The notes below the pieces were generated by a model. It worked only from the letters and a program-made list of their open reading frames with translations. It did no database searches and was not told where the DNA came from. A stretch of 4,828 bases of DNA from a virus (taxonomy: Duplodnaviria > Heunggongvirae > Uroviricota > Caudoviricetes): the IMG/VR virus record IMGVR_UViG_2526164661_000010, positions 1 to 4,828 of that record, one strand, 5' to 3'. Every line of letters begins with the position of its first letter. Positions within the stretch are counted from its first letter, which is position 1. Below are positions 1 to 4,828 of the stretch, one piece after another. The translations under genes and the position numbers were made by a program.

Positions 1-1
1 T

Positions 2-1273
2 ACCCAAATCGCAAGCACGGCTTATGTGATGGCCGCGATTGCCGCCCTTGTAGATTCGTCACCTGATGCACTGAACACGCTGAACGAGCTGGCGGCGGCG
101 CTGGGAAACGACCCGAATTTTGCGACCACCATGACTAACGCGCTTGCGGGTAAGCAACCGAAAGATGCCACCCTGACGGCGCTGGCCGGGCTTGCTACTG
201 CGGCAGACAGGTTTCCGTATTTTACGGGGAATGATGTCGCCAGCCTGGCAACCCTGACAAAAGTCGGGCGGGATATTCTTGCGAAATCGACCGTTGCCGC
301 TGTTATCGAATACCTCGGTTTACAGGAAACGGTAAATCAGGCTTCTGGAGCATTACAGAAAAACCAGAACGGCGCAGATATTCCGGGAAAAGATACCTTC
401 ACCAAAAATATTGGGGCCTGCCGCGCATATGGCGCATGGCTGGATATTGGTGGCGATAATCAGGTCTGGACAACCGCGCAATTTATTTCGTGGCTGGAGA
501 GTCAGGGAGCATTTAACCATCCTTACTGGATGTGCAAAGGCTCATGGGCTTATGCAAATAATAAGGTCATTACAGATACAGGTTGCGGAGATATTTGTCT
601 TGCAGGTGCTGTGGTGGAAGTTATTGGCACTCGCGGCGCAATGACCATACGCGTTACCACGCCGAGTACGTCCAGCGGCGGCGGAATTACTAACGCTCAA
701 TTCACTTATATTAATCATGGTGATGCTTATGCTCCTGGCTGGCGACGGGACTACAACACGAAAAATCAACAACCTGCATTTGCTTTAGGGCAAACAGGAA
801 GCACTGTCGGAAATGATAAAGCTGTTGGCTGGAACTGGAATAGCGGGGTCTATAACGCAAGCATTGGTGGCGCAACAGCATTAATCCTCCACTTCAATAT
901 GAATACGGGGAGTTGCCCTGCCGTACAGTTCCGCGTGAATTACAGGAATGGCGGTATTTTTTATCGTTCAGCGCGTGATGGTTATGGATTTGAAGCTGAC
1001 TGGTCAGAGTTTTACACCACAACCCGCAAACCCTCTGCGGGGGATGTTGGTGCATATACTCAGGCAGAATGTAACTCAAGGTTTATTACAGGTATTCGCC
1101 TTGGCGGTCTGTCATCTGTTCAGACATGGAATGGTCCCGGCTGGTCTGACAGGTCAGGTTATGTCGTTACGGGTTCAGTTAACGGAAACCGTGATGCATT
1201 AATTGATACAACTCAGGCAAGGCCAATTCAGTATTGCATTAATGGAACGTGGTATAACGCGGGGAGTATTTAA
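2..1273 (+). CDS. Phage tail fibre protein, 5'-truncated at window edge: conserved shaft segment fused to variable C-terminal tip (Sv, currently in the expressed orientation)
   Basis: Reading frame is open from nt 2 with no stop before the TAA at 1271-1273, so the GTG/ATG at 26 in the ORF track is internal. Translation contains the segment [63 protein letters not shown], which I recognise as the conserved region of Mu S / P1 S / P2 H-type fibres. The 26-bp crossover site sits in-frame at 303-328. Confidence 0.9.
303..328 (+). repeat. Invertase crossover site, left (gix/cix/pix-like, 26 bp): ttatcgaatacctcggtttacaggaa
   Basis: Two mismatches to the Mu gix sequence TTATCCAAAACCTCGGTTTACAGGAA as I recall it. 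It is present as an inverted copy at 3537-3562 and lies inside the fibre ORF at the constant/variable junction. Confidence 0.85.
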
Positions 1274-1275
1274 TC

Positions 1276-1809
1276 ATGATGCACTTAAAAAACATTACTG
1301 CTGGCAACCCTAAAACAAAAGAGCAATACCAGCTAACGAAACAATTTAACATCAGATGGCTTTATACAGAGGATGGGAAAAACTGGTATGAGGAACAAAA
1401 GAACTTTCAGCCTGATACGTTGAAAATGGTCTATGACCATAACGGCGTTATTATTTGTATTGAAAAGGATGTTTCGGCAATTAATCCGGAAGGCGCAAGC
1501 GTCGTTGAATTACCTGATATTACAGCAAATCGCCGTGCTGACATTTCGGGTAAATGGATGTTCAAAGATGGCGTAGTGGTAAAGCGAACTTATACCGGGG
1601 AAGAGCAGAGGCAGCAGGCGGAAAATGAAAAGCAAAGCCTGTTGCAACTTGCCAGAGATAAAACCCAGTTATGGGACTCACAGCTACGGCTGGGCATCAT
1701 TTCCGACGAGAATAAACAAAAATTAACCGAGTGGATGCTCTATGCGCAGAAAGTCGAATCCACAGACACCTCCAGCCTGCCAGTAACATTTCCCGAACAA
1801 CCTGAATGA
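1276..1809 (+). CDS. tfa: Tail fibre assembly protein (Tfa chaperone) paired with the expressed fibre tip
   Basis: ATG at 1276 sits 2 nt after the fibre stop, with GGGGAG at 1261-1266 as RBS. The 177-aa product begins [18 protein letters not shown] and contains [12 protein letters not shown], typical of e14 TfaE / Mu U-like assembly proteins. Stop TGA at 1807-1809. Confidence 0.9.
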
Positions 1810-1812
1810 GAC

Positions 1813-1839
1813 AAGGCCCGATAGCGGGCCTTAATTTTT
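1813..1839 (+). terminator. Hairpin terminator between the convergent tfa genes
   Basis: Stem aaggcccg (1813-1820), loop atag, stem cgggcctt (1825-1832), followed by aattttt. It is flanked by the inverted final codons of the two tfa genes (cctgaat at 1801-1807 and attcagg at 1841-1847). Confidence 0.6.
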
Positions 1840-2365
1840 ATTCAGGCTTTTGTGGCCATTCAGGATTTGCCGTATCCACACGGCTTACCATAACACTGTA
1901 GCGTTCCCATGACTCCAGTCGTGCGCGTTCCTCATCCGTCGCCATATTCAGCCTGACGGCGCGTTCCAGTGGCTGAATAACGCTTTCCGCTTCGGAAAGT
2001 AACGTGGCCTTTTGTGATTCGGCCTGTTGTTGCTGTTCGTCTGCCGTATAAATCCGTTTAACCACAGCTCCATCCTTAAACATCCACTTCCCTGAATCAT
2101 CGGCCCGACGATTGGCTGTTATATCGGGGACTTCAACAACGCTAAAGCCTTCAGGATTAAGTGTGGAGGCATCTTTAGTGATGGCTACAATAATATTATT
2201 TTCATCGTAAACAATCTTTATTGTGTCTGGCTGAAAATTCTTTACCTCTTCATACCAGTTCTTCCCGTCTTCAGAGTAAAGCCAGATAACTCCGTGCTTC
2301 TTTGTTAACTCATACTGCTCCGGTGTTTTAGCATTACCAGCTTTTATGTTCTTTAAGTGCATCAC
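1838..2365 (-). CDS. tfa: Tail fibre assembly protein, alternative copy (tfa') paired with the silent fibre tip
   Basis: The 175-aa product begins [47 protein letters not shown], resembling e14 TfaE as I recall it. The N-terminal two thirds are similar to the + strand Tfa and the C-terminus is divergent. Start is GTG at 2365 or ATG at 2362. Confidence 0.9.
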
Positions 2366-2366
2366 A

Positions 2367-3536
2367 TTAAACGCTCGCTACATTATACCAGGTGCCATTT
2401 ATATACTTTTGAACAGGTCTGTAATAAACGCCAGCTATATTATCGGCAGAGTGGGACCCTGTATCCTGAACATTTATACCAGACAGTACATGACCTGAAG
2501 GGCACTGGAAATTCCATGTTTGCCAGTTGTTCACTCCATAATATTGCTGTGAACCAAGTCTGATATCTCTCACATAGCGGGAATCAATGTTACCCCAGTT
2601 GCTTGGTTGTATCTGACCGTTTACAGCAAATATCACTGAGTTATCTGTATTTCGCTGACTATAGAAATGCCAGCCTGAATCATCACCAAGCTCTGCAACA
2701 GTTGGTCTTGACGAATTTCCCCACAAGTTAAATGATGCATTACGGGCAGAGTTATTTGCACTTGCAAGAGTGAATAGCTTACTTTCCCCAGCCTGAATAC
2801 CCTTTAATGATATTGCTGAACCATTTCTAAAGCGGAATACATGCACACCATTAGCATAAGCATCCAGCACCCCATCACCATTTTGTTTAAACCCGGTATC
2901 GTTATCTCCTAAAACAATCGAGTTACCGCCAAGAGCACTGGATGTTCCGATGCCCAGTGCACCATTCAATTGACCGCCAGATAATGACAACGCCCCAACC
3001 TCAGCAGCAGTCGGTTTAATGTGCGAACTGTAAATTACATATACAGTTCCATCTGTCAGACCTGTTGGTTTATTCGCTGTATAAGATGGTGATGTATGAA
3101 TCGTTACGCTGGCGTTACTGGTATAATCCCACTGAATATTAACACCTGTGGCGTAATTACCTATTTCAACATAAACATCATAGGTATTACCGGATGTATT
3201 CACCCATGCAAAATTAGTAAATCCAACCGATGTCCGTCGCCATAATGCACCAGTAATACCTTTTGGATTCCCATTTCCGGCACGCAGAACCAGCTCAGAG
3301 ATGCCTGCTTGATGCGAGGAGCCAACGTTATACCCTGCACCACCAATCAGGCTTATGTAAACCACGGAACTGGCCTGTGGCATGGTTACAGTTGCCAGTT
3401 TGAACCATCCAGCACCACCACTAAAAGACATGGTTGTTGAATTTGTTGTGCCGATATTACGCAGGAATAGTTTTTTATCGGGAATATCTGCGCCGTTCTG
3501 GTTTTTCTGTAATGCACCAGAAGCCTGATTTACCGT
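2367..3536 (-). CDS. Alternative tail fibre C-terminal variable segment (Sv'), start-less; expressed only after inversion fuses it to the constant fibre region
   Basis: The minus-strand frame is open from the right crossover site through to TAA (reverse complement of 2367-2369). Reading from the site it translates [20 protein letters not shown], identical to the + strand fibre after the left site, then diverges. The ATG at 3431 given by the ORF track is an internal Met, not a true start. Confidence 0.8.
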
Positions 3537-3562
3537 TTCCTGTAAACCGAGGTTTTAGATAA
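3537..3562 (-). repeat. Invertase crossover site, right (inverted copy): reverse complement ttatctaaaacctcggtttacaggaa
   Basis: One mismatch to the Mu gix sequence as I recall it and 24 of 26 identical to the left site, in inverted orientation, 55 nt upstream of the invertase start. Confidence 0.85.
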
Positions 3563-3616
3563 TGGCCGTTTCTGGCCTGCATGGCATGATTTGCGCTTTT
3601 GGACGGGAGATTCAGT

Positions 3617-4207
3617 GTGCTGATTGGCTATGTAAGGGTATCAACAAATGACCAGAATACAGACCTGCAACGAAACGCTCTTGTTTGTGCAGGATGTGAA
3701 CAAATATTTGAAGATAAATTAAGCGGGACAAAGACTGACCGACCGGGATTAAAACGCGCTTTAAAGCGCCTTCAACAAGGTGACACGCTGGTTGTCTGGA
3801 AACTGGATCGCCTCGGGCGAAGCATGAAACATCTGATTTCTCTCGTCGGGGAACTACGGGAGCGAGGGATTAATTTTCGTAGTCTGACCGACAGCATAGA
3901 TACATCTTCTCCAATGGGGCGTTTTTTCTTCCACGTGATGGGTGCCCTGGCTGAAATGGAACGTGAATTAATTGTTGAACGTACACTGGCCGGACTGGCG
4001 GCAGCGCGCGCACGGGGGCGCACAGGCGGACGTCGACCGAAGCTGACAAAAGAACAGCATGAGCAAATAGCAAGGCTGATTAAAAACGGTCACGACAGAA
4101 AACAACTGGCAATAATTTACAGCATTGGTATATCGACAATTTATCGTTACCACCCCGCAGGAGAATCAAGTGGAACAATTGAGAAGAGTAAACAAAATAA
4201 CCGCTAA
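3617..4207 (+). CDS. pin: Site-specific DNA invertase, serine recombinase of the Gin/Pin/Cin/Hin family
   Basis: From the GTG at 3617 the translation reads (V)LIGYVRVSTNDQNTDLQRNALVCAGCEQIFEDKLSGTKTDRPGLKRALKRLQQGDTLVVWKLDRLGRSMKHLISLVGELRERGINFRSLTDSIDTSSPMGRFFFHVMGALAEMERELIVERT..., near-identical over the catalytic domain to Gin/Pin as I recall them. Catalytic Ser codon at 3641-3643, C-terminal HTH, RBS GGGAGA at 3605-3610. The TTG at 3599 in the ORF track is probably not the real start. The symbol is a family-level guess; gin/cin/pin naming depends on the host element. Confidence 0.9.
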   Translation: MLIGYVRVSTNDQNTDLQRNALVCAGCEQIFEDKLSGTKTDRPGLKRALKRLQQGDTLVVWKLDRLGRSMKHLISLVGELRERGINFRSLTDSIDTSSPMGRFFFHVMGALAEMERELIVERTLAGLAAARARGRTGGRRPKLTKEQHEQIARLIKNGHDRKQLAIIYSIGISTIYRYHPAGESSGTIEKSKQNNR

Positions 4208-4227
4208 TCTGGCCATTAGCGGTTTTT
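4199..4227. terminator. Bidirectional rho-independent terminator between the convergent invertase and tail genes
   Basis: Stem ccgctaat (4201-4208), loop ctggcc, stem attagcgg (4215-4222), then TTTTT (4223-4227) on the + strand. The reverse complement is followed by TTATTTTGTT on the minus strand. The stem overlaps the invertase stop codon. Confidence 0.7.
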
Positions 4228-4235
4228 GTGTTAAA

Positions 4236-4724
4236 TCAGAACAGCCCTTTAACGGAGCTGGCCGCGCTGTTAAGGGATGATGTGACCTTATCTTTGAAGC
4301 CGGACAGCATATCGCTGAACGATGAGGATTGCAGGCGCTCCCGCAAATCCTCATCACAGCGTTCAAGGGTCAGTGAAAATTCTATTTTTTTCGCCTTACC
4401 GTAGCGATCAAATTCAGAGCGGGTCGTATTCGTTCCGGTCAGGACATACATGCCGTAAATCTGCCCGACACCATCAATCAGAGGCCAGGGGCGTCCTGTA
4501 TATGCCTGCGTGGTCAGCAGCGACAGCGACACTTCGCCACCTGTAATTTCAGGATAAAGCACACCGGAAAGCACGATGCGATCATCACCTGCACCGATAT
4601 ACTGCCAGCTTGCTGAACGGTTAACGCGTTCATTTTTCACATGCCGCCAGCTTTTGTTTTGCTGTAACTGCTGATGCGGCAGCGTGCGCAGCTCAAAAAC
4701 AAACATGCCGTAGATCATCATCAT
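4236..4724 (-). CDS. Phage tail protein, P2 gpU-like
   Basis: About 162 aa, MMMIYGMFVFELRTLPHQ...SGVLYPEITGG...GRPWPLIDGVGQIYGMYV..., which matches my recollection of the P2 gpU family (size, MMM start, LYPE.TGG and WPL.DG..IYGMYV motifs). RBS GAGGAG lies 8 nt upstream of the ATG at 4724; the ORF track starts at the in-frame ATG at 4730, only 2 nt from the RBS. Product assignment is from memory, not a search. Confidence 0.7.
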   Translation of the reverse strand: MMMIYGMFVFELRTLPHQQLQQNKSWRHVKNERVNRSASWQYIGAGDDRIVLSGVLYPEITGGEVSLSLLTTQAYTGRPWPLIDGVGQIYGMYVLTGTNTTRSEFDRYGKAKKIEFSLTLERCDEDLRERLQSSSFSDMLSGFKDKVTSSLNSAASSVKGLF

Positions 4725-4736
4725 GACCATGACTCC

Positions 4737-4828
4737 TCAATCTTTATCGTAAAAACTGCCACGTCCGGCACGGGCGCGCCGTTCCATTTCTGCCCTGACC
4801 ATTTCACCGACCAGTTTCGCCAGTTCGC
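4737..4828 (-). CDS. 3' end of the upstream tail gene, partial; possibly tape measure (P2 gpT-like by position)
   Basis: The minus-strand frame is open from the window edge to TGA (reverse complement of 4737-4739), translating ...ELAKLVGEMVRAEMERRARAGRGSFYDKD*. The stop overlaps the RBS of the gpU-like gene (TGAGGAG), suggesting translational coupling. Identity is inferred from gene order only. Confidence 0.4.
   Translation of the reverse strand, partial: ELAKLVGEMVRAEMERRARAGRGSFYDKD

Follow-up and report, generated by a model that had tools for sequence, protein, structure and literature searches.

A Mu G-segment-type invertible tail-fibre locus in a P2-like prophage of Escherichia coli

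Known inversion switches and the layout of the locus

The G segment of phage Mu, with its S/U and S'/U' cassettes and the invertase Gin, has the same architecture and, as proposed below, the same mechanism as the locus described here. The C segment of P1/P7 (invertase Cin), the P segment of e14 (Pin) and the Hin/H segment of Salmonella are inverted at 26-bp sites by members of the same Fis- and enhancer-dependent invertase family. Hin inverts a promoter rather than a coding segment, and its gene is located within the inverted segment. Kindred invertible fibre segments have been described in the P2-like prophages of EPEC E2348/69 (Goldberg et al. 2014), where read-pair and PCR data demonstrated that fibre segments of P2-like prophages flip in E. 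coli cultures (PMC4272514).

The DNA analysed, hereafter the window, comprises 4,828 nucleotides (IMG/VR record IMGVR_UViG_2526164661_000010, positions 1 to 4,828). It lies in a P2-like E. coli prophage of the Xuanwuvirus type (Peduoviridae), and its switch belongs to the Mu G-segment class, being complete, ordinary and already known. Judged by similarity, the system combines Mu G-segment parts, as a mosaic, within a P2-like (Xuanwuvirus-type) tail module. The features are the following.

2-315, + strand: constant N-terminal part of the tail fibre (Sc), running past the 5' end of the window and fixed during inversion
303-328, + strand: left 26-bp crossover site, gix-like, within the fibre ORF, with the core TC at 315-316
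303-391: left inverted-repeat arm, encoding residues common to both tips
316-1273, + strand: variable tip 1, fused to Sc and so expressed as found; Mu S' (G(-)) orthologue, Pfam gp37_C
1276-1809, + strand: tail-fibre assembly chaperone of tip 1 (Tfa), Mu U'-like, Caudo_TAP (E=3.8e-37)
1813-1832: G+C-rich hairpin between the convergent Tfa genes; a T-run is present on the + strand
1838-2365, - strand: chaperone of tip 2 (Tfa'), Mu U-like, silent as found, Caudo_TAP (E=1.7e-37)
2367-3549, - strand: variable tip 2, silent, 393 codons plus stop, with no start of its own upstream
3474-3562: right inverted-repeat arm
3537-3562, - strand: right 26-bp crossover site, the outer half-site carrying a TAA in the fibre frame
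3617-4207, + strand: serine DNA invertase of 196 aa with GTG start, a Gin-like catalytic domain and a Hin-like, diverged DNA-binding domain
3639-3701: candidate Fis-dependent recombinational enhancer within the 5' end of the invertase gene, placed by prediction
4199-4224: hairpin resembling a bidirectional terminator, located between the stop codon of the invertase and gpU, which is convergent with it

An ORF and Pfam scan of the window recovered both Tfa genes, both tips and an invertase with Resolvase and HTH_7 domains, all without interruption. The window ORFs and the invertase alignment revealed neither a frameshift or stop nor a catalytic substitution in the switch parts, and an Rfam scan returned no match. 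The first-pass annotation had described a full fibre switch of the Gin/Cin/Pin type, and this description is upheld: every part is present and uninterrupted, and the flipped fibre frame is open in silico. Its view of the class as well known and not novel was equally sound. The neighbouring genes form a normal, intact P2-like tail module that includes baseplate genes, the tape measure and gpU, and related elements have been deposited as complete phage genomes. From its sequence, the locus is very probably a functional two-state Gin-type inversion switch of the tail-fibre gene, and this particular copy is presumed to be active.

Crossover sites and the inverted segment

A search with a 19-nt core pattern, allowing up to three mismatches, detected exactly two gix-like sites in the window (0.00 expected from 200 shuffles) and no third one. 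The presence of only two sites argues for a two-state switch and rules out a multi-site shufflon, whether of the Min/p15B type or like the three-repeat P2-like locus of EPEC. Both positions (303-328 and 3537-3562) and the inverted orientation are as previously annotated. The left site reads TTATCGAATACC TC GGTTTACAGGAA and the right site, in reverse complement, TTATCTAAAACC TC GGTTTACAGGAA. The two lie inverted to each other, share the identical 2-bp core TC and agree with Mu gix at 24-25 of the 26 positions. The right site has a single mismatch in 26 to the gin-proximal gix of Mu, and the left site carries two substitutions relative to Mu, both in the outer half-site. Within the open frame 2-1273, which spans Sc and tip 1, the crossover site falls at the codons V-I-E-Y-L-G-L-Q and splits the fibre into its constant and variable parts.

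The repeat had earlier been taken as 26 bp only. This proved too short: the arms are 89 nt long and 93% complementary, with the 26-bp sites forming their outer ends. They differ solely at 308 and 311, in the outer half-sites, and at 357, and match exactly over stretches of about 45 and 30 nt. Their length reflects the first approximately 25 codons, which are common to both tips. Apart from the homology between the N-termini of the Tfa genes, no further long inverted repeat was found in the window. The segment truly inverted is about 316-3549, because the outer half-sites remain with the flanks. A crossover at the outer repeat boundary was considered and rejected, since the fibre frame would then take in the TAA of the right half-site and since natural recombinants keep the outer half-sites flanking. 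That these half-sites stay in place is important, as the right one carries this stop in the fibre frame.

In the proposed mechanism, dimers of the invertase (3617-4207) would bind both inverted 26-bp sites and would be activated by host Fis bound to the enhancer in the 5' end of the invertase gene. Cleavage, presumably at the central TC (315-316 and 3549-3550), and strand rotation would then invert approximately 3.2 kb. As found, the fixed fibre N-terminus is joined to the Mu S'-type tip, followed by the U'-type chaperone; after the flip, the same N-terminus would be joined to the mosaic tip 2, followed by the U-type chaperone. Because the tips would alternate, a lysogen population is proposed to release phage with two receptor specificities.

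Both orientations occur among relatives. In complete E. coli genomes carrying relatives of about 95% identity, 36 shared the orientation of the window and 43 that of the window flipped in silico. The near-identical O145 strains RM9467-C1 and RM9872 are distinguished at this one locus by a clean inversion, with identical flanking proteins and mirrored Tfa accessions. In their DNA alignment the interiors are swapped and the outer half-sites fixed, the latter being the variants found in the window (GAATACC / CTAAAACC). A draft contig of 99.5% identity (GCA_001911555.1) contains the parental junction together with the recombinant junction exactly as predicted, its chimeric end being a possible assembler misjoin if a k-mer below 47 was used.

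The natural recombinants place the crossover only between 311 and 357, a resolution too coarse to establish that the central TC is used and one that would also accord with inversion by RecA-mediated homologous recombination between the 89-nt repeats, the invertase being dispensable. The exact runs shared by the arms would lend themselves to such a process. Nevertheless, the ends of the repeat coincide exactly with a gix-like 26-bp site beside a Gin orthologue whose presumed enhancer region is conserved, and the orientation split of roughly 1:1 (36 versus 43 genomes) fits frequent reversible switching. RecA recombination at repeats as short as 89 nt is very rare. Inversion by RecA is hence scarcely credible, and site-specific inversion by the adjacent invertase is the preferred reading.

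The invertase, its candidate enhancer and its expression

Of the invertase coordinates annotated previously, the end at 4207 stands. The start at TTG 3599 was replaced by GTG 3617, which matches the start of Mu gin in the alignment and is on this ground the most likely start. The protein affiliates with the Pfam families Resolvase (E=2.1e-50) and HTH_7 (E=3.5e-13), shares about 88% identity with Mu Gin and matches the Gin structure 4M6F with E=8.9e-101. In the alignment to 4M6F and 3UJ3, Ser9 and the YVRVSTxxQ motif are intact and residue 114 is the wild-type Met, so the earlier assignment to the Gin/Pin family with a catalytic Ser was correct. The roles of S9 and M114V in Gin have been described (PMC3575834); with the wild-type Met at residue 114, the enzyme would therefore be classed as Fis-dependent. 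Its DNA-binding domain is moderately similar to that of Gin and closer to that of Hin. In the alignment to 1HCR, residues Q150, R153 and L154 correspond to Q151, R154 and L155 of Hin, and these Hin residues (Gln151, Arg154 and Leu155) are Fis contacts unique to invertases (PMC3798978).

Over its first 110 nt (3617-3726) the invertase gene shares 100% identity with both Mu gin and an E. coli relative, although synonymous sites vary further downstream. In Mu, the enhancer is located in the 5' part of gin. Two 15-mers of the window matched the Fis consensus at 7/7 specified positions, with centres at 3646 and 3694 and thus 48 bp apart, the scan having used a loose consensus and being weak by itself. 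The proximal candidate lies 96.5 bp from the centre of the right crossover site. A similar geometry has been reported for the Hin enhancer, in which the Fis sites are spaced by about 47-48 bp and lie about 100 bp from the nearest crossover site (PMC3798978). Pairs matching 6/7 consensus positions were uninformative (26 observed versus 20 in shuffles). Inversion would probably depend on Fis and on this candidate enhancer.

With respect to expression, a consensus scan did not find a sigma-70-like promoter upstream of the invertase. Genes of the gin type are weakly expressed. The hairpin at 1813-1832 is likely the terminator for whichever cassette is active. The missing promoter-like site would suit a frozen relic, that is, a copy whose parts look intact yet which no longer inverts to a meaningful extent and provides the S'-type fibre only, if any. 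Possible causes would be a cryptic prophage, an unexpressed invertase or poor site binding by the diverged DNA-binding domain. The only moderate likeness of this domain to that of Gin and the two outer half-site substitutions of the left site relative to Mu point in the same direction, and the completeness and inducibility of the prophage lie beyond what the window shows. Against a relic stand the absence of any frameshift, stop or catalytic substitution, the occurrence of this type of invertase (96% identity in RM14723) beside segments seen both ways round, and the O145 pair, which inverted with the same outer half-site variants (GAATACC / CTAAAACC). A relic thus appears quite unlikely, and a functional switch remains the favoured reading.

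Fibre tips and comparison with described systems

Tip 1 shares about 97% identity over 322 aa with PDB 8JU3 ('Tail fiber protein S,Tail fiber protein S''), and its Tfa is identical to Mu U' at 171 of 177 residues (97%). In relatives, a fibre of 700-745 aa is annotated at the same place, after gpI. The frame of the silent tip 2 is open from 3548 downward and joins Sc in frame after inversion; within the window, the fibre would lengthen from 423 aa as found to 498 aa after the in-silico flip. The two tip and Tfa cassettes of opposite orientation noted in the first-pass annotation are thus both present, each in frame with Sc when flipped. Tfa' is identical to Mu U at 161 of 175 residues (92%) and matches PDB 5YVQ chain B with E=3e-104.

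For most of their length the two tips show no relationship. Tip 2 resembles Mu S over its last approximately 92 aa only (47% identity), ORFs of Yersinia Mu-like phages at about 80% and the C-terminal half of P2 gpH at 56%; copies of 100% identity occur in other E. coli. It carries a 235-nt insertion (2594-2829), and the tip with this insertion is missing from the records of Escherichia phages 520873, 503458 and P88 and from the closest complete genomes. By these similarities, tip 2 is a mosaic. It is paired with a Mu U-type chaperone though only about its last 90 residues resemble Mu S. Both tip specificities had been considered probably uncharacterised. Tip 1 is essentially Mu S' (97%) with a solved structure (8JU3), and therefore the description applies to the silent, mosaic tip alone.

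By analogy with Mu, the two orientations would differ in host range. Yersinia Mu-like phages use the LPS core as receptor (PMC10434027). A transfer of this receptor to tip 2 was considered and dropped, as the homologous tip in vB_YpM_5 is the invertase-proximal copy, silent as deposited and therefore not necessarily the tip used on Y. pestis. It is unlikely, and no specific feature of the sequence suggests, that tip 2 is an unstudied module for a host or receptor beyond those of the Mu, P1 and P2 fibres, or that the switch is a receptor-blocking defence of the lysogen similar to PinQ/StfE2. Very unlikely is a switch that mainly benefits the host, either through a fibre-like protein blocking the adsorption of other phages or as a tailocin with switchable targets. 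Precedents are the invertase-driven P-segment inversion reported for PinQ and e14, which yields StfE2, a protein that blocks T2 adsorption (PMC12529663), and the domestication of P2-type elements raised in an earlier study (PMC4272514). The features of the window, however, give no pointer to such a role, the surrounding P2-like tail module being intact and relatives being deposited as complete phages. A benefit to the host would, moreover, supplement the inversion mechanism rather than supplant it, so that a phage fibre switch is retained as the reading of the locus.

Beyond correct annotation, the significance of the locus is slight. The silent tip ORF, in RefSeq often labelled 'hypothetical protein' or 'incomplete phage tail protein', is no pseudogene but the alternative C-terminus of the fibre. 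An assembly records the orientation as a snapshot of a mixed population, and therefore host-range predictions based on the fibre should weigh both tips. The locus also illustrates modular exchange, with the Mu cassettes and the 5' half of Mu gin moved into a P2-like tail module.

In comparison with Mu, identity amounts to 97% between tip 1 and S', 97% between Tfa and U' and 92% between Tfa' and U. The invertase has an almost identical catalytic domain, and, as in Mu, its gene is placed immediately beyond the segment and points outward. Unlike Mu, the host element is a P2-like prophage and not transposable, with gpI upstream and gpU and the tape measure downstream. The com and mom genes are absent after the invertase, tip 2 is not Mu S, the C-terminal domain of the invertase has diverged and is nearer to Hin, and the inverted repeat measures 89 nt versus 34 nt in Mu. 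The inverted repeats of P1 are much longer, about 0.6 kb, and the S and U cassettes of P1/P7 share 89-93% nucleotide identity with window positions 347-2411. The Xuanwuvirus and other P2-like phages, such as 520873, 503458 and P88, share the order of fibre, Tfa, Tfa', silent tip, invertase and, on the opposite strand, gpU. Their flanks are 93-95% identical to those of the window at the nucleotide level, whereas the cassette content differs.

Gene layout and crossover sites

The locus is delimited by an inverted repeat of 89 nt (303-391 and 3474-3562, 93% complementarity in a repeat search of the window), all other repeats in the window being much shorter. The outer 26 bp of its arms are the crossover sites, listed here with the other features of the locus.

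window edge-1273, plus strand: fibre open reading frame (constant part and tip 1)
303-328, plus strand: left 26-bp site, TTATCGAATACC-TC-GGTTTACAGGAA
1276-1809, plus strand: Tfa gene (Pfam Caudo_TAP, E about 1e-37)
1813-1832: hairpin between the convergent Tfa genes
1838-2365, minus strand: Tfa' gene (Pfam Caudo_TAP, E about 1e-37)
3548 down to 2367, minus strand: tip 2 open reading frame
3537-3562, minus strand: right 26-bp site, reverse complement TTATCTAAAACC-TC-GGTTTACAGGAA
3617-4204 (match; gene to 4207), plus strand: invertase (Resolvase, E=2e-50, and HTH_7)
4199-4224: hairpin ending the invertase gene
4236-4730, minus strand: P2 gpU (protein family match)

The first-pass annotation had described two inverted 26-bp sites enclosing two tip and Tfa cassettes in opposite orientation. 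Both sites are present, each with a central TC, both cassettes are there, and the fibre frame is open either way. The tip 2 frame lacks any start codon ahead of an internal ATG. After inversion of the segment in silico, with strands exchanged at the central TC, the frame of the constant part continued into tip 2, giving 498 aa within the window versus 423 aa as found. The hairpin at 1813-1832 probably terminates the transcript of either cassette.

A 19-nt core pattern with up to three mismatches permitted matched the window twice, at the left and right sites, with 0.00 matches expected from shuffled sequence. Since there are just these two sites, the system is a two-state one and not a shufflon. 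The right site differs by one base from the gin-proximal gix of Mu in an alignment to the phage sequence; the Mu repeat, however, ends after 34 nt, whereas that of the window continues to 89 nt. The arms differ at three positions only, two of them within the outer half-sites (308 and 311) and the third at 357. Recombinases of this family exchange at or inside the site core and leave the outer half-sites in place. A TAA lies in the fibre frame within the right outer half-site, and the frame is therefore open only if the exchange occurs in this manner. RecA-driven inversion between the 89-nt repeats is unlikely because the repeat coincides exactly with the gix sites and is accompanied by a Gin orthologue.

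Both orientations among relatives

Near-identical copies of the whole locus occur in public E. coli assemblies, and the evidence on inversion of the window's own locus is comparative, drawn from relatives. Among 5,426 complete E. coli genomes searched by megablast, 36 matched the window as found and 43 the flipped window in one collinear place with at least 80% coverage; the counts distinguish the two states, a genome in the opposite orientation covering no more than about 67% in any single place. In the near-clonal O145 strains RM9467-C1 (5,385,895 bp) and RM9872 (5,385,924 bp), the element occupies the same coordinate, with identical repeat coordinates and identical accessions for the flanking proteins, while the two Tfa accessions are mirrored on opposite strands. 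In their DNA alignment, flanks and outer half-sites are identical and the interiors exchanged. Strain MSI001 (NZ_CP076645.1) has two related prophage copies, at 1572542-1577211 and 1262755-1267425, of which one is collinear by megablast with the window and the other with the flipped window.

The draft E. coli contig L008, 99.5% identical to window 1-3562, carries the parental junction and, in an inverted duplicate (1-548 and 3645-4192), an end at which a copy of the constant region is joined to tip 2. This end matches the predicted recombinant junction base for base, pairing GAATACC, the outer half-site on the left, with GGTGCA, the arm variant of tip 2. Reading it as derived from flipped molecules requires k-mers of at least 47 from such molecules, and the junction is counted as suggestive only because the assembler settings are not known. 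Two contigs from further assemblies, each of 3.2 kb, consist of exactly the invertible segment alone. Contig breaks at the locus in drafts are a mark left on the assembly by the repeat, and possibly also by cultures that contained both orientations when sequenced.

In RefSeq relatives, the silent tip is labelled 'hypothetical protein' or an incomplete pseudogene ('missing N-terminus'; 5367-6482 in L003 and 5367-6293 in L002). Such a reading frame encodes the other C-terminus that the fibre gene can take and is not a decayed gene.

Invertase and putative enhancer

The adjacent Gin/Pin-family serine invertase with its catalytic Ser, likewise proposed from first inspection, aligns with Mu Gin over its full length (E=9e-101), its GTG start with the gin start and its Ser9 with that of Gin. 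At position 114 it has the wild-type Met, a mark of the Fis-dependent form (PMC3575834), and Q150, R153 and L154 align to the Fis-contacting Q151, R154 and L155 of Hin, reported as uniquely conserved among invertases (PMC3798978). The gene itself is a mosaic: over nt 1-110 it matches Mu gin and an E. coli relative with 100% identity, nt 111-345 are about 92% identical to gin with scattered, mostly synonymous differences, and beyond about nt 345 (window ~3961-3976) the identity collapses to roughly 60%. For the DNA-binding domain that it encodes, the score with Hin (1HCR) is slightly higher than that with Gin. A megablast match to SfMu also stops at 3972.

The zero synonymous change in 3617-3726 fits a second, cis-acting constraint. 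A Fis-bound enhancer lies in the 5' part of the invertase gene in Mu, P1 and Hin (PMC3798978, citing Kahmann et al. 1985 and Johnson & Simon 1985). Two candidate Fis sites fully matching a loose consensus are centred at 3646 and 3694, the proximal one at 96.5 bp from the centre of the right site; in Hin, about 47 bp separate the Fis site centres and hixL is about 100 bp away (PMC3798978). These observations are consistent with, not proof of, the predicted enhancer in 3617-3726.

A promoter scan upstream of the invertase (3556-3616) found no sigma-70-like promoter, in favour of the possibility that this is a frozen copy which no longer inverts. Against this, the parts carry no lesion and the same site variants have inverted in the O145 pair. 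Visual inspection gives a candidate -10-like GATAAT at 3558-3563, overlapping the right outer half-site; if it is used, the invertase promoter would sit on the crossover site.

In an active switch, two invertase dimers would bind the inverted 26-bp sites and assemble an invertasome with host Fis on the predicted enhancer. Ser9 would cleave both sites at their central TC; after a turn of one subunit pair by 180 degrees, religation would invert about 316-3549, leaving the invertase and the constant part of the fibre unmoved. The expressed set would alternate between tip 1 with a U'-type Tfa and tip 2 with a U-type Tfa.

Fibre tips, host element and known systems

The inner cassettes are Mu-derived. 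Tip 1 is about 97% identical to Mu S' over 322 aa (solved structure 8JU3), Tfa is identical to Mu U' at 171 of 177 residues and Tfa' to Mu U at 161 of 175; with S'-like tip 1 and U'-like Tfa expressed, the window is in a 'G(-)-like' state. The suggested search against known fibres returned S' for tip 1 and partial matches to Mu S and P2 gpH for tip 2. The expectation of probably uncharacterised specificities fails for the expressed tip and stands for tip 2 alone.

Tip 2 is a mosaic and not Mu S, with which its last ~92 residues alone align (47% identity). Its best phage relatives are reading frames of Yersinia Mu-like phages (about 80% identity over 85% of the length); residues 26-249 match a P1-like phage at 90% and the C-terminal half P2 gpH at 56%. 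The closest complete E. coli genome gives 78% identity with a 56-residue gap, corresponding to 235 nt (window 2594-2829) absent from the closest complete genomes (RM14723, O169:H41). This stretch overlaps the part of tip 2 weakly matching T4 gp34-type fibre repeats and P2 gpH. Since copies with 100% identity were found in other E. coli assemblies, tip 2 is rare without being unique. In the vB_YpM_5 genome as deposited, the counterpart of tip 2 lies next to the invertase and is silent; for this reason, LPS core, the receptor of the Yersinia phages, was not assigned to tip 2.

Downstream (4236-4828, minus strand), gpU (164 aa) and the final part of the tape-measure gene are convergent with the invertase, with the shared hairpin alone between them, and no gpD homologue follows gpU at the locus. 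A host-defence role like that of PinQ/StfE2 is conceivable, but it found no specific support and the neighbours form an ordinary tail module.

The best-matching phage records, Escherichia phages 520873 and 503458 (genus Xuanwuvirus, Peduoviridae), share the gene order of the locus (gpI, fibre, Tfa, Tfa', silent tip, invertase), followed on the other strand by gpU, tape measure, tube and sheath. P2 itself differs: from the convergence of gpU and tape measure with the invertase, the sheath-to-gpU block of this element lies on the strand opposite to the fibre genes. As first noted, the class is well known and not novel, and publications also describe such switches in P2-like prophages and their activity in cultures; by read-pair analysis and PCR, Goldberg et al. 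(2014; PMC4272514) found the fibre segments of E. coli Mu and P2-like prophages in both orientations within single-colony cultures.
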